64,000 bases of DNA, taken from assembly GCA_964648765.1 (NCBI GenBank), contig CAZYLF010000001.1, positions 229,797 to 293,796 of the forward strand, given 5' to 3'. The stretch's first letter is position 1; each line of letters begins with the position of its first letter. The position numbers and the translations under genes were made by a program. The notes beneath the pieces are model-generated. The model saw only the letters and a list, made by a program, of their open reading frames with translations, searched no databases and was not told the origin of the DNA. Origin of the DNA: an uncultured Candidatus Saccharibacteria bacterium (GTDB lineage Bacteria; Patescibacteriota; Minisyncoccia; Phycocordibacterales; JACOZG01). Of the stretch, positions 15,380 through 31,672 are shown one piece after another.

Positions 15380-15736
15380 TCATTTACTGTATAACAGGTA
15401 TGCATGTTTTATAAGTATGTTGTTTATTTGAGCATTTTGTAGTTCCATACTTCCGTGTTCAATAGAGAAAGTACTTTTTATGTTTTTGATAAAGTCATCT
15501 TTGGAATCCAGTAAAACAATTCTGGATAGGTCTCTAAGTTCGTTAGGATTTAGATTTTTTCTGAAGACATTAGCTATCTGGGATAAATCTTCTTGTGTGT
15601 CCAAATTAGAACCACCGATCACAACATCCCACAATGCGTTATCATCTCTTTTAACAATAATAAAAGTAGAAATATCCTTAGTGTTTCTAATTTCACTTAA
15701 GGAAGAACTGAGTTTGTTGATTATTTCTTTTTCCAT
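15380..15736 (-). CDS. Hypothetical protein, downstream partner of HEPN-like gene
   Basis: A 118-aa ORF begins 5 nt after the HEPN-like gene ends. It carries no MNT GSxxRG motif. Confidence 0.45.
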   Translation of the reverse strand: MEKEIINKLSSSLSEIRNTKDISTFIIVKRDDNALWDVVIGGSNLDTQEDLSQIANVFRKNLNPNELRDLSRIVLLDSKDDFIKNIKSTFSIEHGSMELQNAQINNILIKHAYLLYSK

Positions 15737-15740
15737 TTAA

Positions 15741-16157
15741 TTATATTTCTTTCCACAAATACCTCGCTATCCGCTGAGCTGATTTGACCGCCCCACTGGC
15801 TTGGCTGAGCATCATTTTACCCTTAATCGGAGCGTAACGCATTTCAGGATTCCACTGCAACAATATACTCCAGTCAGCTAGATAAGTGCTTTTTATCTTA
15901 TTGCCAATATGCGGCGGAACTTGTTTTAAAAGTTCTTCAAGATTATGAGTCTTTATCCTGGCCACAGCGTTAAACTCTTCATTAGTGTGAGGAATGCCAG
16001 ACAGGCAAATATTTTTACAAATTATTGCCTTTAAAGCTATTTCAATTGCGTATCCGGAGATATACAAAGACCCCTCATACGATTTGTTCTTGAGTAGAAT
16101 TTTTGAGTCTTTGATGCGAGCCCTGGATATTTTATCTAACTCTTGAGTGGATATCAT
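15741..16157 (-). CDS. HEPN-like domain protein
   Basis: 138 aa, all alpha-helical. SYEGSLYISGYAIEIALKAIICK matches the HEPN helix-1/2 pattern, and ARIKTHNLEEL gives an R-x3-HN motif, which is imperfect against Rx4-6H. Confidence 0.45.
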   Translation of the reverse strand: MISTQELDKISRARIKDSKILLKNKSYEGSLYISGYAIEIALKAIICKNICLSGIPHTNEEFNAVARIKTHNLEELLKQVPPHIGNKIKSTYLADWSILLQWNPEMRYAPIKGKMMLSQASGAVKSAQRIARYLWKEI

Positions 16158-16639: not shown

Positions 16640-16930
16640 AAGTAATAAATGGCCCGCACAAAGCAAGGATATCTTTGTAAAGTTTTTCGAGTGTGACATG
16701 GCTTAACTGCCGGCCAGGACTCTCCCGCGCCTCTTGTCTCGCCGCCGCTCGACTCGGGCTGGGCACCGCCTCGCGAATTTATTTGCTAATAAATTAACGC
16801 TCCGGCGTCCTCGTCCCTGGCGCGAGTGAAGCAGTTCACTCGCTGCCGGCAGTTATCCGCTACGCTCCTAACTGGGGCTCTTGTCTGACGTTAGAACCCT
16901 TTTACTACAAGGTGAGAGCGAGTTTTATTA
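16640..16930. ncRNA. GC-rich, ORF-free, highly structured region; candidate structured RNA of unknown class
   Basis: GC content is well above the ~40% background. A perfect 9-bp hairpin GCGAGTGAA/TTCACTCGC sits at 16821-16842. An AT hairpin AATTTATT/AATAAATT is also present. CTTAACTGCCGGCC (16698-16711) pairs with GCTGCCGGCAGTTA (16844-16857) over long range. No ORF of 60 aa or more is present. Confidence 0.4.
16703..16720. repeat. Direct repeat of the tRNA-Gln 3' end (CTGCCGGCCAGG-ACTC); candidate att site
   Basis: A 12-nt exact match plus ACTC to the plus-strand sequence 26113-26131 (CTGCCGGCCAGGGACTC), which forms the 3' acceptor/T-arm of tRNA-Gln. Confidence 0.45.
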
Positions 16931-16957
16931 TCGTTGCCCAGCATTTGCTATGCAGAG

Positions 16958-17476
16958 CTAAACACCTTTAACCCCACTCTGCTTTTCACTATTGTTCAAG
17001 GTGGCGTTTATTTTCTCCAAGAGTTCACTCGTATTGAAACGTCCGTGATTTTCCAATCTCAATAACGGCAACCCTGCATCTTTGAGCACTCGTTCAACTT
17101 CAACATCTCGGCCCTTGCGGTCCTGCCTCTCGTGCGTGCGGTCATCAAGTTCTATTGCGAGTTTCGGTGAGAGGTATGACTTATCGCACAAAACAAAATC
17201 CACTGATTTCTGGCTTATATGCCGAAAAGCTCCTCGCCAATTTTGCCCCACAACTTTATTGTCTACGATGGATGGAAGATGGACCTGTGGAAAGATGAGA
17301 TATTTTTCTCCCACTGCGACGACAAGAGCATCGTAGCACTCGTGTTCAGCACGAGACATAAAAAAGTTTTTCTGCTTGTATTTATATTTCCGTGGCTCAT
17401 CCACTTTGCCTCGTAAAATCTCTACGAGAACGCCGATGACCACAATGACTGCAACAATAATGAGTATCTTTATCAC
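16958..17476 (-). CDS. DUF2726-like (NERD/restriction-endonuclease-like fold) protein with N-terminal TM
   Basis: The segment FVLCDK...LAIELDDRTHERQDRKGRDVEVERVLKDAGLPLLR resembles the DUF2726 core. Confidence 0.55.
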   Translation of the reverse strand: MIKILIIVAVIVVIGVLVEILRGKVDEPRKYKYKQKNFFMSRAEHECYDALVVAVGEKYLIFPQVHLPSIVDNKVVGQNWRGAFRHISQKSVDFVLCDKSYLSPKLAIELDDRTHERQDRKGRDVEVERVLKDAGLPLLRLENHGRFNTSELLEKINATLNNSEKQSGVKGV

Positions 17477-17523
17477 AAAGACATTTTAACTTATTTTGAT
17501 GATTTACCCCACCCTCGCTCTCA

Positions 17524-18165
17524 CTATAAACTTTGGTATGCCTCTACTTGCTGGTTGTATTCGTATTGGACCATCTGATAATTGGTTCCCCATTTTTGTT
17601 TTGCTTTCGCCATAATATCTGGGTATTTTGTCTGTGCCATTATCCATTCATACGCTTCTACCTGTTGATTGTATTCATACTGGACCATTTGGTAGTTGTT
17701 GCCCCACTTCTGCTTTGCCTTAGCCATTATGTCGGGATACTTTGTTTGAGCCACTACCCAGTCGTATGCTTCAACCTGCTGGTCATACTCGTATTTAACC
17801 ATCTGATAGTTATCGCCCCATTTTGCCGAAGCATTTGATTTCAAAACCACAAGAACGCTGGCTCTGTCTGATTGTGTCGCTGGTGCTGGAGTTGGTGTGG
17901 GAGCTGGGGTCGTCGGCACTGTTGCAGGTTTGGGAGTTGTCTTTGGGGTTTGCTTAACTGGAGCAACTGCTTCTGTGGTTTTAACAGCTTCTGCCGTTTT
18001 TTGATTTTCTACTGGAGCTGGCGTTGTTGTTTCAGATGCCACTTGTGAACTGGTGCTATCGCCACCCAACGAACCAAGAAAGCCGAGGAAAATAATAATG
18101 GCGAGAGTAATGAACCACCATCGCTTGTAAAAAGGTTTCTTTGCTTTGTTGATTTGTGTGTCCAT
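17524..18165 (-). CDS. Membrane-anchored repeat protein (Pro/Thr-rich linker + 3 tandem 33-aa repeats AKAKQKWGxNYQMVQYEYNQQVEAYEWIMAQTKYPDIM)
   Basis: An N-terminal TM is followed by a PT-rich low-complexity linker and three near-identical repeats. Confidence 0.55.
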   Translation of the reverse strand: MDTQINKAKKPFYKRWWFITLAIIIFLGFLGSLGGDSTSSQVASETTTPAPVENQKTAEAVKTTEAVAPVKQTPKTTPKPATVPTTPAPTPTPAPATQSDRASVLVVLKSNASAKWGDNYQMVKYEYDQQVEAYDWVVAQTKYPDIMAKAKQKWGNNYQMVQYEYNQQVEAYEWIMAQTKYPDIMAKAKQKWGTNYQMVQYEYNQQVEAYQSL

Positions 18166-18189
18166 ATTTTTATAAAGTTATTTTAATAA

Positions 18190-19245
18190 TTATTGGCACT
18201 GCGGACTTTTAGTTCTTGATGGATACGCGGCTAAAAGAGCATCCAACGTGTCGTAGGATTTCAAATAGCTGGCACTCAAACTTTTCCATCCATCGCACGC
18301 TTCTGGGTAGTAGTATTTTGAGCTGTAATATGAGGACGTATAAAACTTTCCAGTTGATTGCGTAGTAGCTGGAGGGGCTGTCTGGGTGCTTGTGTTTGAG
18401 CTTGTCGTGTCTCCATTACAAGTAGTCGGGGACCAAAGACCCAACTGGGCTGTCTGTGCGGATTTTTGTGCCGTCTTAAACTCCGCTTGGTATTTGTAAG
18501 GAGTGTTGTAGGTGTACTCGTGAGCATACCCCTGCTCAATCATAGATTTGTTGTAGAAAAGCCCGTCATCCCGATAGACATAGGCAAGGAGGCGGTCATA
18601 CTTATCTCTCTCGCCTTGAGTTGGGTCTATTTCTATCCGCACCTTTTTTCCAGAGAGCAATTCTTTTCCTTTGTTTGATGCCTCTTTACCGAAACACTGA
18701 ACGGGCTTTCTTGGGTCCACTGTCTCTGGTGTATCCAATCCGATGAGGCGTAGCGTTTCCACTTTCCCATTCATACTGATTTTAATCGTGTCTCCGTCTA
18801 CAACTTCTGTAACAGAGTAGTAGGTATATTGAGACGAAGATGGCTGTGCGGTTGCAGGTTTGGTCGTAACTACTGGTGTCTCCGTCTTTGCTTGCGTTAC
18901 GGCAGGAGCTGGAGCATTAGGAGTTGTTGTAGCAGTATCTATTGGGTTTGGTGCAACATTATTTTGGCTCTGCGTCTGTGTTGAGATGACATTATCTGCC
19001 ACCTGCGTAGGCGTAGTGTTTCCAGAAATCAATAAAATGGCAGAGAAAAAAGTGATGAGACAGAGAGCTCCTGTCGCTGTGTATTTCCAGCTTTTCTTAT
19101 CTATGAGCTTGTAAGCAACGAACGCTCCTACTGCATACACTATCGTATTGGGTAAAGCGATGATTGCGATTATAAAAATGATGAGGGCGATACCCATCTG
19201 GTATCCAGTGGAGAGTGCTTTATATTTTGAGATTATATTTTTCAT
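18190..19245 (-). CDS. Membrane-anchored secreted thermonuclease (SNase/micrococcal nuclease family)
   Basis: The C-terminal domain LRLIGLDTPETVDP...CFGKEAS...GKKVRIEIDPTQGERDKYDRLLAYVY matches the SNase fold with catalytic D/E/R residues. A Thr-rich linker and TM helix precede it. The start is taken at the internal ATG 19245 before the TM helix. The ORF extends to 19395. Confidence 0.7.
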   Translation of the reverse strand: MKNIISKYKALSTGYQMGIALIIFIIAIIALPNTIVYAVGAFVAYKLIDKKSWKYTATGALCLITFFSAILLISGNTTPTQVADNVISTQTQSQNNVAPNPIDTATTTPNAPAPAVTQAKTETPVVTTKPATAQPSSSQYTYYSVTEVVDGDTIKISMNGKVETLRLIGLDTPETVDPRKPVQCFGKEASNKGKELLSGKKVRIEIDPTQGERDKYDRLLAYVYRDDGLFYNKSMIEQGYAHEYTYNTPYKYQAEFKTAQKSAQTAQLGLWSPTTCNGDTTSSNTSTQTAPPATTQSTGKFYTSSYYSSKYYYPEACDGWKSLSASYLKSYDTLDALLAAYPSRTKSPQCQ

Positions 19246-19525
19246 AGTAATAGTAATAAAAAATCGCCCTAATAGTTTGGGCAATTTGTTTTTTTCCAAC
19301 AAAAAGCCCATCACAAGGAAGGTCCTTTCGGATACCTCTGCACGAGTTTCCCCGTGCAACGACGTGAACGCCCTTATGATGGGTTCTCTGTTCACGTCGT
19401 TTTATGACCATATCTCAAGAAAATCTCTTGAGGGTTAGGTCCCACTGCATATTCAGTTGTGCCTACATTTAACCACACTTCTTATCAATTTCAAAGAAAA
19501 ATGATAGGATGCTGTTACTATTACT

Positions 19526-20260
19526 ATGACAATTACGATTGAAGAAAAGTTCATAAAGGATGCACGCTTGATATTGGACGAGCTCCAAGCGGAGCTTATA
19601 GCTTCCAAAGACGGCATCATACGTTACCTTTTTATAAAGGAAGACAAAGCACCCAACGAGCGAGAGCAGAGACGTATCATTCGTTGGCTTATAAACGCAG
19701 GGGCACTTCAATCTATTGGAGAAATACACGAAGACCTACCATCTATTTTTGTTACGCTTAATCCATTCGTTAAAACTGCTACTATCGGATTTCGGTTAGG
19801 TATAGATAAAACACTTTTTGCCGAGGTGAGAAAAATCTGCGAAAGTGATTTGAGTAAAAAATCAGCCAAAGAACTTTTGGACCAAGTAGAAACACTGGGC
19901 AGAGCGAAACGCCTTGAAACTCAAAAACTAACGGAGCCAGAGAAAGTCGTCATCAAACCATTTCTTGATGAACCAAGTAAGACAGTCATTCTTGCTGGAA
20001 AAAAATCTACAATCCCCGTTGGCAATCAGTGGGTTTTATGCAAAGAGCTTTTTAATAAACCAGCAAGCGATTGGGTGAAAGAAAATGATGTGGTCCACCT
20101 TTTTAACAAAGACGGCAAGCAGAGTTTCTACGATGCACAGCGTCTACTCAATGCTCGCATAGAAAAAGATTTGGGCATAAAGGATTTCATTGAATATGAG
20201 ACAGCTATGGCGAGGATAAACCCAAAAACGATTGAAAAACTGAACCATTCAGAAAAATAG
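19526..20260 (+). CDS. Hypothetical protein
   Basis: A 244-aa ORF. It is the first plus-strand gene of the element after a divergent intergenic region. Confidence 0.5.
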   Translation: MTITIEEKFIKDARLILDELQAELIASKDGIIRYLFIKEDKAPNEREQRRIIRWLINAGALQSIGEIHEDLPSIFVTLNPFVKTATIGFRLGIDKTLFAEVRKICESDLSKKSAKELLDQVETLGRAKRLETQKLTEPEKVVIKPFLDEPSKTVILAGKKSTIPVGNQWVLCKELFNKPASDWVKENDVVHLFNKDGKQSFYDAQRLLNARIEKDLGIKDFIEYETAMARINPKTIEKLNHSEK

Positions 20261-20309
20261 AGATTTCTGACTCACGAATGAGTCAAACGAACACAGGTAC
20301 GCTCAAGGC

Positions 20310-20663
20310 GTGCCTTTTTCGTTCCCAAAAATTGCACACATTATTAGCCAATATCCAATTACAATGACCAACAAAAAAACCAAAAGGTCATCAACAACCG
20401 ATGGACAAAAAGAAGCTCCGCCAAATGACCCCACGGCGGTGTTCACTACTTATGACCTCGGTGTATCCACCGCACTTTTGTGTGCGGATTTTGAGCTTGT
20501 CTCGGTAGACAAAGAGAACCCACGAAAAGCATTATTCATCTTCAAGAAAGCAGACGGCATTGAAGATGTTGCGAACCGATACTTTTCGGACAGGTTAGAA
20601 GTCAAAGCAAGGTCGTTCTTTGACCATCTCAAAGCTCTCAAGAATAAGCTTTATTCCGAGTAG
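20310..20663 (+). CDS. Hypothetical protein
   Basis: A GTG start at 20310. An alternative ATG lies at 20364. Confidence 0.4.
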   Translation: MPFSFPKIAHIISQYPITMTNKKTKRSSTTDGQKEAPPNDPTAVFTTYDLGVSTALLCADFELVSVDKENPRKALFIFKKADGIEDVANRYFSDRLEVKARSFFDHLKALKNKLYSE

Positions 20664-20665
20664 CT

Positions 20666-20851
20666 ATGCAGTTAGCGGATGAACATATCAAAGAGTTTCA
20701 GGTGCTCTACAAAAAGCACTACGGCGTTGAAATAAGCACTGCCGAAGCTCTGGAAAAAGGCATACGTCTCATCCGCTTGATGGAGATTGTTTTGAAGCAC
20801 GAAGCAAAGAAACAAGCGACACAGACGGTCCCAACTCCGATTACCAATTAA
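20666..20851 (+). CDS. Small hypothetical protein (61 aa, helical)
   Basis: The ORF is tightly packed between its neighbours. Confidence 0.35.
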   Translation: MQLADEHIKEFQVLYKKHYGVEISTAEALEKGIRLIRLMEIVLKHEAKKQATQTVPTPITN

Positions 20852-20861
20852 AAAAATAATT

Positions 20862-23051
20862 ATGAACCTATCAAACATTACAATCAAAGAATATCTTACC
20901 GAGAAAGGCATACCCTTTCGTGAGAGTGGCAAAGAGCTCATCGCCAAGTGCCTTTTCAATGATTGCGACAGAGACAGCAAAGGTGATGAAGCTCACCTTT
21001 ATTTCAGCACGGAAACAGGACAATATGATTGCAAAAAATGCGGCGAAAAAGGAAACCTGCTTACGCTCGCAAAACATCTTGGCGATACAGGACCGAAACC
21101 ACGCAAGGCAAATGCTTTCAATGCCGAGCTCGTAGAGAAATGTCATCTTGCACTGCCACCCCATATCAGAGAGTACCTGCACAAGCGTGGGCTTACGGAT
21201 GCCGTTATAGACGATTATAAGCTCGGTTACGGGCAGTTCTACCGCAAGCCGTGGATTACTATCCCTATCAAAGACATCTACGGCAACTATTCATTTTTCA
21301 AATTGAGACAGGACCCAGCGTTCGGCAACGACAAAATCACTTTCCCGAAAGGAGCGGAAGCCCAGCTTTATGATTGGGAAACTCTCGTAAAAAGTGATGT
21401 GAACAAGCCAATGATTATCAGTGAGGGTGAGATGGACCGATTGCTTCTCATTTCAAAAGGAGTGCCAGCGATAACCTCCACTCACGGAGCGATGACATTC
21501 AAAGATGAGTGGGTTGAAAAAGTCGGCAAAGACAGAAAAATCTACATCTGCTTTGATAACGACGACGCTGGCAAAAAAGGGTCCGAACGAGTAGCAAAGA
21601 TGGTGGAAAATGGTGGATGCGAGACACACATCATCACACTTCCCGAAGAAGTCGGAGAGCACGGAGACATCACAGATTATTTCGTGAAGCTCAATGGGTC
21701 CGTAGATGATTTGTTCAGCAAATACGCAAAGCCATACCCAGAAAAAATTGATACCACACAATTTTCTGCGATGAGTTCGGAGCAACTCTTGGACACCCTC
21801 GGACTTACCATCAAATACGATGCCGAAAATAAGCTGGCTACTTTCCTTTGCGAGCTGTCGGCTTATACAGAAAGCTCACAGTTTAATATCAGTTATAATG
21901 CACCATCTTCAACAGGTAAAAGCTATATACCGACAGAGATAGCTCGCCTATTCCCAGAGGATGACGTGATGGAGATTGCTTACTGCTCACCCACAGCTTT
22001 TTTCCACGATGTCGGGCAGTATGACAAGGAAAAGAACAGCTACTTGGTAGACCTCTCACACAAGATACTCATCTTCTTGGACCAACCGCACAACGAACTG
22101 CTTGCCCGATTGCGTCCACTCCTGTCGCACGACAAGAAAGAGATTGCTATCAAAATCACCGACAAGACCCAAAAGAATGGGACCAAAACAAAGAACATCC
22201 TTTTGCGTGGCTATCCATCCGTTATTTTCTGCACGGCTGGGCTCCGCATAGACGAGCAAGAAGCGACACGTTTTCTGCTTCTCTCTCCAGAGGTCAATCA
22301 AGACAAAATACAGCAAGGTATCAGTGCCACTATTCTCAAAGAAGCAGACACTGATAGTTTCAAAAGCTGGCTTGAAGAAAACCCAGACCGAGCATTACTC
22401 AAAGAGCGTATCCGTGCTATCAAACTGGAGAACGTTAAAGAGATAAACATCGCATCGCACGAAACTATCAAAGAGAGGTTTCTGAAAAATAACAAGACAC
22501 TCAAGCCACGCCACCAACGAGACATCAAACGTCTTTTGTCTCTCATCAAATCCTTTGCCATCCTCAATGTCTGGTGGCGAGAAAGAGATGGGTCCACGAT
22601 TACTGCGAATGAAGATGACATCAATGATGCTTTCAAGCTCTGGGACAAAATATCTGTGAGTCAGGAGTTGAACTTGCCCCCTTACATCTACAATCTCTAC
22701 AAAGAGGTCATATTGCCAGCGTGGGAGGCAAAAAACGACAGCAGGAGCGAGGCGTTTGAGGAACTCACAGGCAAGCTCGGGCTCTCACGCCAAGAGGTCC
22801 TCGGGAAGCATTTTGCGGTATACGGCAGGATGCTTGATAGCCATCAACTCCGTCAACAGATACTCCCTATGCTTGAAACAGCAGGGCTTATTGTGCAGGA
22901 ACAAGACCCGAGCGATAAACGCAAGATGATGATTTTCCCCTCTACCCTGTATCAACTTTCTGAACCAAAAGGAAATAGTGAGACGGACAGTGGGGTAAAA
23001 AACACCGAACAGAAAGACGATGAGATTATTAGCGATAACATAGATTTTTAA
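20862..23051 (+). CDS. DNA primase: zinc-binding domain + TOPRIM + C-terminal P-loop domain
   Basis: An N-terminal Cys cluster CLFNDC...CKKCGEKGN forms a primase-type zinc finger. TOPRIM motifs IISEGEMD and ICFDNDDAGKKG are present. Downstream lie a Walker-A-like APSSTGKS and a Walker-B-like ILIFLDQ. Confidence 0.7.
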   Translation: MNLSNITIKEYLTEKGIPFRESGKELIAKCLFNDCDRDSKGDEAHLYFSTETGQYDCKKCGEKGNLLTLAKHLGDTGPKPRKANAFNAELVEKCHLALPPHIREYLHKRGLTDAVIDDYKLGYGQFYRKPWITIPIKDIYGNYSFFKLRQDPAFGNDKITFPKGAEAQLYDWETLVKSDVNKPMIISEGEMDRLLLISKGVPAITSTHGAMTFKDEWVEKVGKDRKIYICFDNDDAGKKGSERVAKMVENGGCETHIITLPEEVGEHGDITDYFVKLNGSVDDLFSKYAKPYPEKIDTTQFSAMSSEQLLDTLGLTIKYDAENKLATFLCELSAYTESSQFNISYNAPSSTGKSYIPTEIARLFPEDDVMEIAYCSPTAFFHDVGQYDKEKNSYLVDLSHKILIFLDQPHNELLARLRPLLSHDKKEIAIKITDKTQKNGTKTKNILLRGYPSVIFCTAGLRIDEQEATRFLLLSPEVNQDKIQQGISATILKEADTDSFKSWLEENPDRALLKERIRAIKLENVKEINIASHETIKERFLKNNKTLKPRHQRDIKRLLSLIKSFAILNVWWRERDGSTITANEDDINDAFKLWDKISVSQELNLPPYIYNLYKEVILPAWEAKNDSRSEAFEELTGKLGLSRQEVLGKHFAVYGRMLDSHQLRQQILPMLETAGLIVQEQDPSDKRKMMIFPSTLYQLSEPKGNSETDSGVKNTEQKDDEIISDNIDF

Positions 23052-23055
23052 CACT

Positions 23056-23634
23056 ATGGAAGAAACATCACAAAAACAAATTGATGCCAACCGAGAGAAC
23101 GGCAAGAAAGGCGGAGTGAAGACCGACGAGGGCAAAGCTGTGAGCAAATATAACGCTATCAAACACGGTATTTTGAAAGAGGTCGTCTCTGATTACGAGC
23201 AGAGTTTCTACGAGGACATTATCGAACGTCTCAATGACCAATTCAGCCCCGTAGGAGTGCTTGAGAAGATGCTCGTGGACCGAGTGGGTGTGTATTACCT
23301 CAAGCTCTACCGAGTAGCAAAGGCAGAGAATGAGTATATGCAGTCGGTCCTCAATCCGAGAAAGGTTACAGTCAGAGACACCCTTGATATTGGGATGAAC
23401 TACACTGAAACCATAATAGAAAATGAGGGCTACATTCCAAAGGTCGGTTTGGGTCCAGTAGAAAAACTCTCCGACACTTATCTCCGCTACGAAATAGCGA
23501 TTGAGAACAGATTGTACAAAGCACTTCACGAACTCCAACGATTACAGTCAGCAAGAAATGGTGAAAAGGTCCCACCCCCATTAGCATTAGATATTGATGT
23601 GTCAGGAGAAAAGGAAAATGGGTTCGTTTCGTAA
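23056..23634 (+). CDS. Hypothetical protein
   Basis: A 192-aa ORF placed 4 nt after the primase stop. Confidence 0.45.
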   Translation: MEETSQKQIDANRENGKKGGVKTDEGKAVSKYNAIKHGILKEVVSDYEQSFYEDIIERLNDQFSPVGVLEKMLVDRVGVYYLKLYRVAKAENEYMQSVLNPRKVTVRDTLDIGMNYTETIIENEGYIPKVGLGPVEKLSDTYLRYEIAIENRLYKALHELQRLQSARNGEKVPPPLALDIDVSGEKENGFVS

Positions 23635-23773
23635 AAGTGAAAAACGCCATCCGTATTTGGTGTATTCACTCAAAAAGACGAAAAAAGCTCTCAACACAAA
23701 CGTAAAATGTCGGTTTTATTAGGGAAAATAGGGTAACAATCTCAAATGATTTCGGCAATTTATTTCCAAAACT

Positions 23774-24370
23774 ATGAGTAAAAGCGAAGCAGACAACGTG
23801 AAAAAAATCTCTACGGCTTTCCTAAAAAAGCACGGCTACTTCAAAGGGTGGAGGTCAGGTACGATTACTTGGACCAACAACGGCTTATGGGGTGAAAATA
23901 AAAGCAGTGTGGGGGTAGAGGTTTCTACATCAGATGGAGTGAGTCATCTCCGTATTACCTACACCCAGACAGACAGGGATACGGACGAAAAGAAAGAGTT
24001 TGATTACAAAGTACCACTCACCACTACCCCGTGCCGTTATGGAGGCGAGAGATACTGGTTTCTCTGTCCTCTGGTTAAAAATAATGTGCATTGTGGCAAA
24101 CGAGTAGGCACACTCTACAAAGACGGAGATTACTTTGGCTGTCGCCACTGCTATGACCTCGGCTATAGTTCTCAAAAAACCAATCACCGATACAAAATGC
24201 TACCCCTGTTCAACGTGTTCACGATTGAGAAGAAAATTGAGGAACTTCAAGGGCAGATAAAGCGTCCCCACTACGCTGGCAAGCCAACAAGAAAAGAAAG
24301 ACAGCTTGAAAAGCTATATGAACAGGTAAACACCAACTATGCTCAACTTTTACAAAAAAAATTGTTATAA
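23774..24370 (+). CDS. Hypothetical protein with Cys4 cluster (C..C...C..C)
   Basis: 198 aa. CPLVKNNVHCGKRVG...CRHC suggests a zinc ribbon. Confidence 0.45.
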   Translation: MSKSEADNVKKISTAFLKKHGYFKGWRSGTITWTNNGLWGENKSSVGVEVSTSDGVSHLRITYTQTDRDTDEKKEFDYKVPLTTTPCRYGGERYWFLCPLVKNNVHCGKRVGTLYKDGDYFGCRHCYDLGYSSQKTNHRYKMLPLFNVFTIEKKIEELQGQIKRPHYAGKPTRKERQLEKLYEQVNTNYAQLLQKKLL

Positions 24371-24519
24371 TGCTTATGTTGTCCCAGTTAGTAATTGTTT
24401 TGCCAGAGGTTTTTTATTGCAAAATGGAACCCGAGAGGGGCGTTCTGCCAACTATTTTGCAGTCCTCTGGATTACACTTATAGCTGGGACAACCAGAGCG
24501 TCCCTTTCGGGTTTTTAAT

Positions 24520-26172
24520 ATGAAAAAAGATAACGAAAAAATAAAATACTTTGTCTATGTGCGAAAATCTACCGAGGGCGTAGAGCGACAAGCACTCTCC
24601 ATTCCTGCACAGAAAGACCAGCTCGTAAAAGTGTTTGGACACTTGGATATTGAGTTCGTGGAAGACCGAGCAAGTGCTTTCAAGCCATTCAACCGCCCAG
24701 CTTTTGCAGATATGCTTGAGCGTATAAGAAAAGGAGAAAGGACTGGGCTTATTGCTTGGCATCCAGACCGCCTTTCACGAAATGAAAAAGACGCTGGCGA
24801 AATAACTTATATGATACGCACTGGCGTGATTGCAGAACTCAAGCTCGCTACCTACCAGTTTGAAAACACTCCCGAGGGTATTTGGATGCTCCAGATGGCA
24901 CTCTCTCAATCTCAATACGAAAGTGCAAAGAAAGGGCGAGACGTGAAGCGTGGGCTTGAACAGAGTGCAAAAATGGGCTTTTACCCTGCACCAGCACCTC
25001 TAGGTTACTTGGATGACAAATACAGCGAACGAGGTAAGAAAAAGAAATTGCCAGACCCAGACAGATTTGACCTTGTTCGTAAGATGTTTGATTTGATGCT
25101 CACTGGAGAACATACCCCACCTCAAATCAGAAGAATAGTGAACGAGGAGTGGGGGTTCAGAGGACCATACGGAAAAAAGATGAGTAACAGTGCCATCTAT
25201 AACCTTTTTACTCGCACATATTACTACGGCGAGTTTGAGTATCCTGTCGCAAGTGGAAAGTTTTACATTGGAAGTCATAAGCCGATGATTACCAGAGACG
25301 AGTACGAGAGGATACAGATATTGCTCGGTAGGAAAAATGCAACGAGATTGAAACAGCACGATATTATTTACCGAGGTCCAATGAGGTGTGGCGAATGTGG
25401 GGCGATGATTACTGCCGAAGAAAAGACAAAATATCAGAAGAACGGAAACACACATCACTACACCTACTACCACTGCACAAAGAGAAAGGACCCTAACTGT
25501 TCTCAAAAATCTATTGAGGAAAAGGAGCTTGAAAAACAAATTGCTAAAGAGCTTGGAAAGATAGAGATACCTGCGGACTTCAAAAACTGGGCTCTGGCAC
25601 GCTTGAAAACACAAAACTCACAAGAGGTTGATGACAGAGAAAAGATATATGGGTCCCAGAGGCGTGGATATGAGGCAGTAGTGCGAAAAATAGACAACCT
25701 CATTGATATGCGTGCAGACCAAGAAATAACCGAGGATGAGTTCAAACACAGAAAAGAAGTGTTGCTTGCAGAAAAATCCAAGTTCAAAGAGCTCCTCAAG
25801 GATACAGACACAAGAATTGATAAGTGGCTTGAGATAGCAGAGCGTGGCTTCAATTATTCAGAAAAAGCATCGGCTGTTTTTGCAGACATTGAAGACCCAA
25901 ACACTCTTGAAGCCAAGAAAGAGATATTTGCCACATTAGGTTCGGACCTCATCCTAAAAGACAGAATGTTGAGCTTTGAGTGGGATAAACTGCTATTTCC
26001 AATAAAAGAGATGGCAAAAGAGGTTCGTGGTATTCACGAAAGGTTAGAACCTCCGAAAAAGCCAATGACTACAAAGGAAATGGAAGAAATCTACTCACAA
26101 AATCCTAGATTGCTGCCGGCCAGGGACTCGAACCCCAATACCATCCTCCAGAGGGATGTGTCCTACCATTAG
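24520..26172 (+). CDS. Large serine recombinase (integrase)
   Basis: The N-terminal resolvase domain has a catalytic Ser in YVRKSTEG. A recombinase domain follows, then a zinc ribbon (CGECGAM...HHYTYYHCTKRKDPNC) and a coiled coil. The last ~20 codons are antisense to tRNA-Gln. Confidence 0.85.
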   Translation: MKKDNEKIKYFVYVRKSTEGVERQALSIPAQKDQLVKVFGHLDIEFVEDRASAFKPFNRPAFADMLERIRKGERTGLIAWHPDRLSRNEKDAGEITYMIRTGVIAELKLATYQFENTPEGIWMLQMALSQSQYESAKKGRDVKRGLEQSAKMGFYPAPAPLGYLDDKYSERGKKKKLPDPDRFDLVRKMFDLMLTGEHTPPQIRRIVNEEWGFRGPYGKKMSNSAIYNLFTRTYYYGEFEYPVASGKFYIGSHKPMITRDEYERIQILLGRKNATRLKQHDIIYRGPMRCGECGAMITAEEKTKYQKNGNTHHYTYYHCTKRKDPNCSQKSIEEKELEKQIAKELGKIEIPADFKNWALARLKTQNSQEVDDREKIYGSQRRGYEAVVRKIDNLIDMRADQEITEDEFKHRKEVLLAEKSKFKELLKDTDTRIDKWLEIAERGFNYSEKASAVFADIEDPNTLEAKKEIFATLGSDLILKDRMLSFEWDKLLFPIKEMAKEVRGIHERLEPPKKPMTTKEMEEIYSQNPRLLPARDSNPNTILQRDVSYH

Positions 26173-26183
26173 ACGAGCCGGCA
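26113..26183 (-). tRNA. tRNA-Gln (anticodon CUG)
   Basis: The minus-strand sequence TGCCGGC-TC-GTCT-AATGGTA-GGAC-A-CATCC-CTCTGGA-GGATG-GTAT-TGGGG-TTCGAGT-CCCTG-GCCGGCA-G folds as a cloverleaf. It has a U1-A72 pair, U8, GG in the D-loop, a TTCGAGT T-loop and a G73 discriminator. CCA is not encoded. Confidence 0.75.
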
Positions 26184-31567: not shown

Positions 31568-31666
31568 TAGTTATTAAGAGTGTGGCGAGAGAATTGGCTC
31601 GATGACCCACCAGCAACCCTTATCAATAAGAAGGTGCTCCCAACCCCGTAAGCGGGGGAAGATAAT
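31568..31666 (+). promoter_or_regulatory. SAM-I (S-box) riboswitch-like aptamer upstream of metK
   Basis: The sequence TTATTAAGAGTGTGGCGAGAGA...GGCTCGATGACCC...GCAACC...GGTGC...CCCCGTAAGCGGGGG...AGATAA matches the conserved SAM-I blocks UUAUCAAGAG, GGCCCGAUGA, GCAACC, GGUGC, a P4 hairpin and the 3' P1 strand. Confidence 0.5.
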
Positions 31667-31672
31667 TTTTTT

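Follow-up and report, generated by a model that had tools for sequence, protein, structure and literature searches.

The window analysed here is a whole stretch of 64,000 nt from an uncultured Candidatus Saccharibacteria bacterium (contig CAZYLF010000001.1 of the assembly GCA_964648765.1, positions 229,797 to 293,796), and positions 16707-16850 in it are probably, if by no means certainly, a copy of a small non-autonomous mobile module that acts as RNA and was in place before the serine-recombinase island that now adjoins it. The module represents a family of elements of ~135-170 nt, which is widespread in genomes of the Candidate Phyla Radiation (CPR)/Patescibacteria type, sits immediately 3' of tRNA genes, and is apparently undescribed. 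The CPR genomes are tiny and thought to be poor in repeats and in known non-coding RNAs.

In the window, the GC content amounts to 0.61 over positions 16700-16899 and to 0.63 over 16715-16849, compared with ~0.36-0.47 in the flanking DNA, and there is no open reading frame (ORF) of at least 50 aa between 16646 and 16957. The region contains a 9-bp hairpin (GCGAGTGAA-GCAG-TTCACTCGC, 16822-16843), an AT hairpin (AATTTATT-TGCT-AATAAATT, 16776-16795) and a long-range pairing of TAACTGCCGGC (16704-16714) with GCCGGCAGTTA (16846-16856), which is continued by CCAGGAC and GTCCCTGG inwards of the 9-bp hairpin. A 157-nt segment folds with -74.2 kcal/mol on the minus strand (z = -4.8) and with -66.2 kcal/mol on the plus strand (z = -3.6), and in neither case was any of 200 shuffled sequences as good. 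The motif CTGCCGGC begins at 16707, 16843 and 26113 and, being a palindrome, also gives 16845 on the minus strand; the 8-mer count is weak by itself, with five matches against 1.3 expected and five reached by 1 of 100 shuffles. The features pointed out in an earlier note on this DNA, namely the high GC content, the lack of ORFs, the two hairpins and the long-range pairing, were all found in the sequence, and so were the three copies of the motif with a palindromic one in the middle, whose coordinates had been placed 2-3 nt off. The same note had remarked that the minus strand mimics the 3' end of tRNA-Gln, which turned out to be the key clue. The repeat shared with this tRNA is real, and it is longer than had been described: it comprises CTGCCGGCCAGG(G)ACTC at 16707-16722 and at 26113-26129, i.e. 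the tRNA sequence from the 3' end back to the T-loop, with 16 of 17 positions matching and one C missing.

BLAST and nhmmer searches of the recombinase loci with the intergenic region revealed homologues in L009 and in L059, the latter with 76% identity over 88 nt; their hairpin sequences differ from those in the window and the pairing is kept. A degenerate core pattern with 23 fixed positions and one two-fold position (W) matched at least 120 metagenome loci, nearly all of which exhibit an architecture identical to that of the window copy, and a covariance model (R1), which can be used directly to annotate more copies, found 125 of them in 100 metagenome loci. Many of the matches originate from groundwater of the Hainich wells. 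Read on the window plus strand, this architecture comprises the reverse complement of the last 18-19 nt of the tRNA (DR1), hairpin A with the loop TCGCCGYCGCTC, the sequence GGCMSCS-CCTCGCG followed by hairpin hp1, a segment AWCGCTSCGGYS-TTCGAAYCCC that copies the T-loop and T-stem of the local tRNA, hairpin hp2 with the loop AAGCAGTT, often an acceptor-like segment with a further hairpin, and the reverse complement of the whole tRNA gene. Among the matches listed, a tRNA gene is located 19-110 nt away for 86 of the 122 copies, and these tRNAs represent 19 isotypes. The orientation is invariant, as each copy with a visible tRNA is found just 3' of that tRNA and on the same strand, and the other copies are found at the end of a contig or, like that of the window, have had DNA inserted between them and the tRNA. 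In 42 of 48 non-redundant copies, the duplicate has its inner end between T-loop positions 55/56 or 56/57, at a distance of 18-19 nt from the 3' end of the tRNA; the median perfect length of the duplicate is 19 nt, and in a few copies it extends for at least 10 nt into the trailer.

The family is not represented in Rfam 15, full-text searching of the literature yielded no description of such a tRNA-flanking element, and a BLAST search of a phage collection gave no match. Pattern scans of IMG/VR with the core and with the motif of the island arm (see below) retrieved chance matches only, and look-ups of exact proteins for two neighbouring genes returned only identical contigs of one study, which are of no use for covariation. 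Many of the sampled CPR loci carry no copy of the module at all. In L022 a different GC-rich module, not detected by the model R1, takes this place at 305-495, between a duplicate of the tRNA-Gln 3' end (CTGCGGGACTTGG) and the arm of the recombinase island, and is likewise equipped with an inverted copy (CCAAGTCCC); it may represent a second family of a similar kind. In L059 there is an extra fragment of tRNA-Gln at 26-47 (the anticodon-arm region, CTAGATTCACGGCTTCAAAGGC), ~30 nt outside the duplicate of the module and 16 kb from the intact tRNA-Gln gene.

The conservation of the structure was evaluated on an alignment of 91 non-redundant copies, all taken in the orientation of the tRNA strand, with a total of seven helices, obtained from RNAalifold and by adding helix P3. 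Standard pairs occupy 88.9% of the cells, compared with 67.6% in shuffled alignments and 31-41% in slid controls; 723 cells are changed on both sides, as opposed to 219 in shuffles and 125-205 in slid controls; and the covariation score is 0.542, against 0.175 and 0.05-0.13, respectively. None of the 500 shuffles attained the observed values of pairing and covariation, so that the covariation goes beyond the controls in the way that a structured RNA does. Double changes were found in 27 of 37 pairs, and all three hairpins covary strongly across the homologues. The hairpins are highly diverse in sequence: 99 copies include 85 distinct sequences of hp1 and 78 of hp2 (34 of them with the loop GCAG), and the junctions and the purine-rich internal loops, with their tandem G.A pairs, hold the invariant nucleotides. 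In the orientation of the tRNA, the pairs include 144 G-U versus 80 A-C and 108 G.A versus 28 C.U, and the minus (tRNA) strand of the window copy folds better than the plus strand by 8 kcal/mol. This asymmetry moderately favours an RNA that would be read in the direction of the tRNA, i.e. from the minus strand of the window. The earlier note had considered an unrecognised structured RNA and had proposed an Rfam scan and a covariation analysis of homologous regions; both lend support to this option, given the compensatory variation in the three hairpins and the lack of any relevant Rfam match even at E <= 10.

The scan of the window with the model R1 revealed a single copy of the module, at 16715-16849 on the minus strand (122.1 bits, E = 7e-27, model positions 1-135), and all its parts described below are likewise assigned to this strand. 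DR1 (16707-16722) is the duplicate of the tRNA-Gln 3' portion, from G57 of the T-loop to the discriminator, and forms the 3' strand of the predicted closing helix. Helix P3 and hairpin A (16724-16764, helices 5-7 of the alignment) have GAGCGGCGGCGAG (minus strand) as their apical sequence, which is conserved; 82-95% of their cells are paired, with numerous double changes, and G-U is seen 36 times at base pair 121-161. Helix P4 and hp1 (16765-16807, of which the AT hairpin 16776-16795 constitutes hp1) are flanked on the plus strand by the conserved sequences CCTCGCG and AACGCTCCGGCG; here 95% of the cells are paired (helix 4) and double changes occur in 8 of 11 pairs. The inverted copy of the tRNA T-loop and of the 3' segment of its T-stem (16809-16822, plus strand TCCTCGTCCCTGGC), which was linked to 26119-26136 by a repeat search, serves as the 5' strand in the closing helix P2; in other copies of the module the inverted segment matches the T-loop and T-stem of their own neighbouring tRNA. 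Finally, hp2 (16822-16843, helices 1-2), which is the 9-bp hairpin mentioned above, combines a variable stem with the loop conserved in the family.

One indication that the module has moved or been copied comes from the locus L197, which carries on its reverse strand one copy next to tRNA-Gly(tcc) and another next to tRNA-Pro(tgg) (405-545 and 2096-2240), with 1.7 kb between them. Over 100 nt the two cores are 100% identical, and this stretch stops precisely at the T-loop half-sites; the hp2 hairpins, inverted copies and duplicates are mutually unrelated and each fits its own tRNA. A similar pattern is seen in L106 and L184. Comparison of L112 with L159 revealed ~105 identical nucleotides in the core and five compensatory differences within the 22 nt of hp2; here and in L197 hp2 has evolved far more rapidly than the core, which hints either at hypervariation of this hairpin or at a core that was replaced repeatedly. 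Up to four copies occur per tRNA cluster (L160, L124), tandem copies are present at single tRNAs in L106, L124, L151 and L087, and the syntenic loci L117, L161 and L160 differ in whether the genes for tRNA-Cys and tRNA-Leu(taa) are accompanied by the module.

The serine-recombinase island occupies the DNA between the module and the tRNA gene, and, judged by its junctions, extends from ~16851 to 26112 (9.3 kb). It encodes a DUF2726 protein, a repeat protein, an SNase-domain protein, a DUF5659 protein, a Toprim primase and a large serine recombinase of 550 aa (24520-26172, plus strand; Pfam Resolvase, Recombinase and Zn_ribbon_recom), the last ~20 codons of which overlap the intact tRNA-Gln(CTG) gene (26112-26183, minus strand; identified by ARAGORN, Rfam tRNA score 50.4 bits). 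Relatives of the recombinase with 54-80% identity are found in ~20 CPR genomes, where they likewise end on tRNA-Gln or tRNA-Asn and share the DUF5659-primase gene module. The far ends of the related islands carry a conserved arm, GCTGCGGGCAnTGGAC-GAnGTTAGAACC, which in L024 directly follows the recombinase gene, an arrangement that looks like an uninterrupted attP site. In the window the arm begins at GCTGCCGGCAG (16841-16851), where the left, attR-like junction of the island (16841-16851) shares GCTGCCGGC with the end of the tRNA (26111-26120), and continues on the plus strand over 16851-16915, including the motif GACGTTAGAACCCTTTTACTACAAGG (16887-16912), which is 85-92% identical by BLAST to sequences in L008 and L009 located next to tRNA-end-like sequence. 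L008 possesses the island end and lacks the module. The three copies of CTGCCGGC thus differ in nature: the one at 16707 belongs to the flanking duplicate of the module, the one at 16843 to the left junction of the island, and the one at 26113 is the tRNA-Gln gene itself.

The proposal of the earlier note that the region is an attachment (att) site of a serine integrase stands for its right edge only: a short site shared by both boundaries of the island was found at 16841-16851. The GC-rich core itself (16723-16842) constitutes a module in its own right, and its occurrence is not tied to a recombinase element: it is present at more than 100 tRNA loci without a recombinase in the vicinity, and for more than 80 copies next to a tRNA this absence holds over +/-5 kb. 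The note had reasoned that a lack of covariation, together with conservation limited to genomes with the element, would point to att DNA; the opposite is seen, with the module conserved mostly where there is no island. Its other suggestion, a disrupted tRNA-like target, did not hold, since tRNA-Gln is intact and it is the module that carries a duplicate of the 3' portion of the tRNA. We propose that tRNA-Gln(CTG) at 26112-26183, which is presumably the original tRNA of the module, would have gained the module at an early stage; this acquisition must be old, because DR1 has since lost one C. The 9.3-kb island would then have integrated at the tRNA 3' end, directly beside hp2 and between the tRNA and the module, parting the two and creating the third copy of CTGCCGGC. 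The tandem order of module, island arm and, at a distance, tRNA is also found in L009, L059, L091, L173 and L175. A junction of the island circle that reads ...TAGATTGCTGCCGGCAGTTATCC... and lacks 16723-16842 would, if true, make the module independent of the island. The notion that the module is a part of the recombinase island was rejected, as solitary copies dominate, and the recombinase is unlikely to mobilise it, with the island junction at the extreme 3' end of the tRNA and the module junction in the T-loop.

In the interpretation that we favour, the folded structure would act as RNA on the tRNA strand and would have spread as a non-autonomous mobile element. On this strand the order of its parts is hp2, the inverted copy of the T-loop and T-stem, a core of ~100 nt and the direct duplicate of the last 18-19 nt of the tRNA. 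The core may be described as a junction with two covarying arms (P4/hp1 and P3/hairpin A) and G.A-rich internal loops; the inverted and direct copies are predicted to pair, and the core would therefore be placed in the loop of an extended helix resembling a T-stem and acceptor stem. This closing helix would provide the RNA with a tRNA-minihelix-like end. The module would be inserted into tRNA genes at T-loop position 55/56-56/57 and transcribed with the tRNA or after it, selection would preserve the folded RNA with its minihelix-like end for propagation or stability, and the mobilising enzyme would act in trans. We speculate that target-primed copying with template switching (snap-back) at a nick in the T-loop would yield both copies, direct and inverted, as well as an outer junction that varies. 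It is conceivable, though rather doubtful, that the family constitutes a new class of mobile elements, in which a structured RNA cassette of ~100 nt homes to the universally conserved T-loop (TTCGAA) by an RNA-templated or hairpin-mediated process; the idea that the insertion chemistry is categorically new can be put forward equally tentatively. If it is true, each insertion copies the 3' portion of the target once in the direct and once in the inverted orientation, which leaves the tRNA intact and endows the element with a minihelix end, and we would be dealing with a prokaryotic, tRNA-targeted parasite of CPR bacteria that resembles short interspersed nuclear elements (SINEs) and uses a trans-acting enzyme.

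Several observations weigh against this interpretation. The strand asymmetry is only moderate and comes partly from one subfamily, and hairpins of single-stranded DNA could give rise to similar covariation. Some copies contain a terminator-like hairpin between the tRNA and the module, and a scan for promoters and terminators detected no promoter-like site near the window copy. Within 5 kb of the modules there is no recurrent gene for an integrase, a transposase or a reverse transcriptase: the search for recurrent neighbours returned only spurious ORFs running through the module and syntenic housekeeping genes, apart from one helix-turn-helix protein, which is encoded near modules in 8 loci and has no match to a nuclease domain. 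"Empty frames", i.e. T-arm-like perfect palindromes without the core, were not found in 2.1 Mb, and because there are no such empty palindromic sites, a history in which the frame came first and the core later is not supported. The presence of an inverted copy that matches each tRNA is not explained by any simple insertion model. In L161 the duplicate differs from the acceptor of the present tRNA by two base pairs and the module is intact, which suggests long persistence that is compatible also with a function for the host. Lastly, ~1.02 Mb of CPR genome loci with ~70 tRNAs contain only three copies (in the window, L009 and L059), all at the far end of serine-recombinase islands and none beside an island-free tRNA, an association that is unexplained.

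A function for the host is the essence of one alternative, according to which the module is a gene for a non-coding RNA attached to tRNA genes, producing by read-through from the tRNA a minihelix-ended RNA for tRNA processing, stability or sensing, with new copies arising by ordinary duplication or gene conversion. The strongly conserved structure and junction nucleotides, the fixed orientation behind tRNAs, the module of L161, which is intact next to a duplicate that is old and has diverged, and the lack of a mobility gene nearby would all fit such a gene. It is harder to reconcile with the observations that only some tRNAs carry the module and that these differ between related genomes, that many sampled CPR loci have none, that identical cores are found beside different tRNAs, that copies occur in tandem, and that the duplicate, which resembles a target-site duplication, at times reaches into the trailer; we regard this alternative as unlikely. 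Quite unlikely, in our opinion, is that the structure works as DNA, as a folded single-stranded signal for recombination or transposition akin to integron attC sites or the ends of IS200/IS605, its hairpins being recognised by a recombinase with its cleavage site in TTCGAA, the palindrome of the T-loop. The exact bounding of the recently copied unit by T-loop half-sites agrees with this idea, as do the fixed junction position, the long perfect palindromes that some copies form with the tRNA end, and stems that keep their structure without conservation of sequence. However, the G-U and tandem G.A pairs favour one strand, purine-rich internal loops of the kind typical for protein-binding RNA are conserved, no gene of the HUH, tyrosine or Cas1 type recurs nearby, and empty palindromic sites are lacking.

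Two further explanations have far less to recommend them. That the whole GC-rich region is an att site of the large serine recombinase island, with attP/attR arms and inverted repeats, is suggested by its position at the far end of the island, by GCTGCCGGC shared with the tRNA end, and by the location of all three copies in the genome loci at island ends. It is nevertheless very improbable, as the more than 80 copies mentioned above adjoin tRNAs directly and have neither a recombinase nor an island, the island end in L008 has no module, the island possesses its own conserved arm to the right of 16851, and the covarying structure of 135 nt is longer than usual att sites, which measure ~40-50 bp for serine recombinases. 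A decayed or unusual gene for a known RNA (a tRNA pseudogene with an insertion, tmRNA, RNase P RNA, signal recognition particle (SRP) RNA or 6S RNA), to which the acceptor- and T-stem-like ends identical to tRNA-Gln might point, is barely credible. In the region ARAGORN called neither a tRNA nor a tmRNA; the only tRNA called by ARAGORN and by Rfam (RF00005) is that at 26112-26183, and 16700-16860 has just the 3' sequence of the acceptor and T-stem. Rfam 15, which covers also riboswitches, ribozymes and the Weinberg-2017 motifs, was scanned on both strands at E <= 10 and gave no tmRNA match and nothing relevant, the best one being MEG3_2 with 18 bits against a threshold of 60, i.e. a chance match, and the matches that Rfam gathering thresholds yield in the whole window (LOOT, SAM and tRNA) are all outside the region, in line with the failure of the earlier note to fit tmRNA, RNase P RNA and SRP RNA. 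Multiple copies per genome at 19 tRNA isotypes also disagree with this explanation. A giant tRNA-like gene with the acceptor stem TGCCGGC/GCCGGCA was considered and rejected as well, given that GCCGGC is palindromic, that its right copy is the island junction and that many copies of the module lack the outer helix.

The mobile module that we favour misses a defining feature of each of four known types of elements: MITEs (miniature inverted-repeat transposable elements), remnants of tRNA-targeting elements, attC sites and tRNA-derived SINEs. Like the bacterial MITEs, it is short, non-coding and present in many copies, with stable hairpins, inverted terminal segments, a flanking direct duplication and no enzyme gene of its own. 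It forms dispersed, near-identical copies (125 matches to the model, with cores 100% identical in L197), and the duplicate of the tRNA 3' end, with its fixed inner end and an outer end that is sometimes in the trailer, corresponds to a target-site duplication. On the other hand, element-specific terminal inverted repeats and a related autonomous insertion sequence were not found, as the inverted segments copy the local tRNA, no transposase family recurs nearby and no parent insertion sequence is known. The module differs from MITEs also in the duplicate of at least 18-19 nt with one end fixed in the tRNA T-loop, in targeting one position of tRNA genes, and in internal hairpins that covary like those of a functional RNA. 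Integrative elements that target tRNA genes and their derivatives include islands with a crossover in the T-loop and tandem accretions of the cis-mobilizable element (CIME) type. With them the module shares a duplicate that begins in the T-loop, a tRNA that stays intact and tandem arrays at one tRNA, as exemplified by the island and the module at tRNA-Gln in the window. However, the module has 135-200 nt and no integrase, its duplicate can reach the trailer, and one core is found at 19 isotypes with a repeat that is always local, which is not explained by an att identity segment borne by the element.

Among retroelements, the eukaryotic tRNA-derived SINEs and the Mauriceville retroplasmid have tRNA-like 3' ends. 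The module is likewise small and RNA-shaped, with a tRNA-like end, its duplication has one end that is fixed and varies in length, which recalls target-primed reverse transcription, and its spread would need an enzyme in trans; an RNA intermediate is only conjectured, and the fixed inner and variable outer junctions, the tRNA-like end and the strand asymmetry bear on it indirectly. Unlike SINEs, it is bacterial and has no A-tail, no internal promoter and no linked reverse transcriptase. The integron attC sites resemble it in size, in the conservation of structure over sequence and in being imperfect palindromes that can fold as a single strand, but the module has three hairpins and a closing helix made of tRNA sequence, its consensus lacks GTTRRRY-type ends (the R and L core sites), and there is neither a cassette array nor an integron integrase, no integrase being recurrent nearby. 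In the tRNA-like domain of tmRNA and in YrlA, a bacterial RNA similar to Y RNA, a helix similar to the acceptor and T-stem closes a larger structure, as it does in the module. However, the module matches neither the tmRNA nor the Yrl models, its helix copies that of the neighbouring tRNA of whatever isotype, and it is accompanied neither by a tag ORF nor by an Rsr/Ro gene.

A strongly covarying and widespread structure of 135 nt outside Rfam is a concrete new family of RNAs or mobile elements to characterise. Its exact coupling to T-loop positions 55-57 of many isotypes, with the target copied both directly and in inverted form, is outside the textbook mechanisms of insertion, and the module could reveal new chemistry of recombination or retro-insertion. 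In annotation, it marks old tRNA 3' ends and separates the repeats of modules from the att sites of islands, which helps to avoid mis-called island boundaries in CPR genomes.

A few observations concern the neighbourhood of the module. The recombinase ORF reaches ~60 nt into the oppositely oriented tRNA gene before it stops (26112-26172 in the window; also in L005-L025), an overlap conserved in ~20 CPR genomes with tRNA-Gln or tRNA-Asn, and in L024 it runs into the tRNA-like island arm instead of the tRNA; the coding sequence for the C-terminus of the recombinase thus seems to span the attachment site, and excision would alter this end of the protein. Within the island, a full-length LOOT RNA (Rfam RF03000, 72 bits) is found at 19319-19441 on the minus strand, directly upstream of the SNase-domain gene and overlapping its long ORF call (18190-19395); it looks like a 5' leader of this gene, because in the Logan gene call the protein has a later start and a length of 335 aa. 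Another island gene (17524-18165) encodes a protein of 213 aa without a Pfam match, which contains three tandem repeats of 114 nt (38 aa) with 75-79% identity (17536-17824, minus strand). Just outside the module, at 15380-16157 on the minus strand, a HEPN-domain protein of 138 aa and an adjacent protein of 118 aa are encoded, a pair resembling a toxin-antitoxin or defence pair; the gene for the former is called in the Logan contig L003 and is not called at this place in L002. A SAM-I riboswitch (Rfam RF00162, 59.8 bits), unrelated to the module, is present at 31568-31668 on the plus strand.

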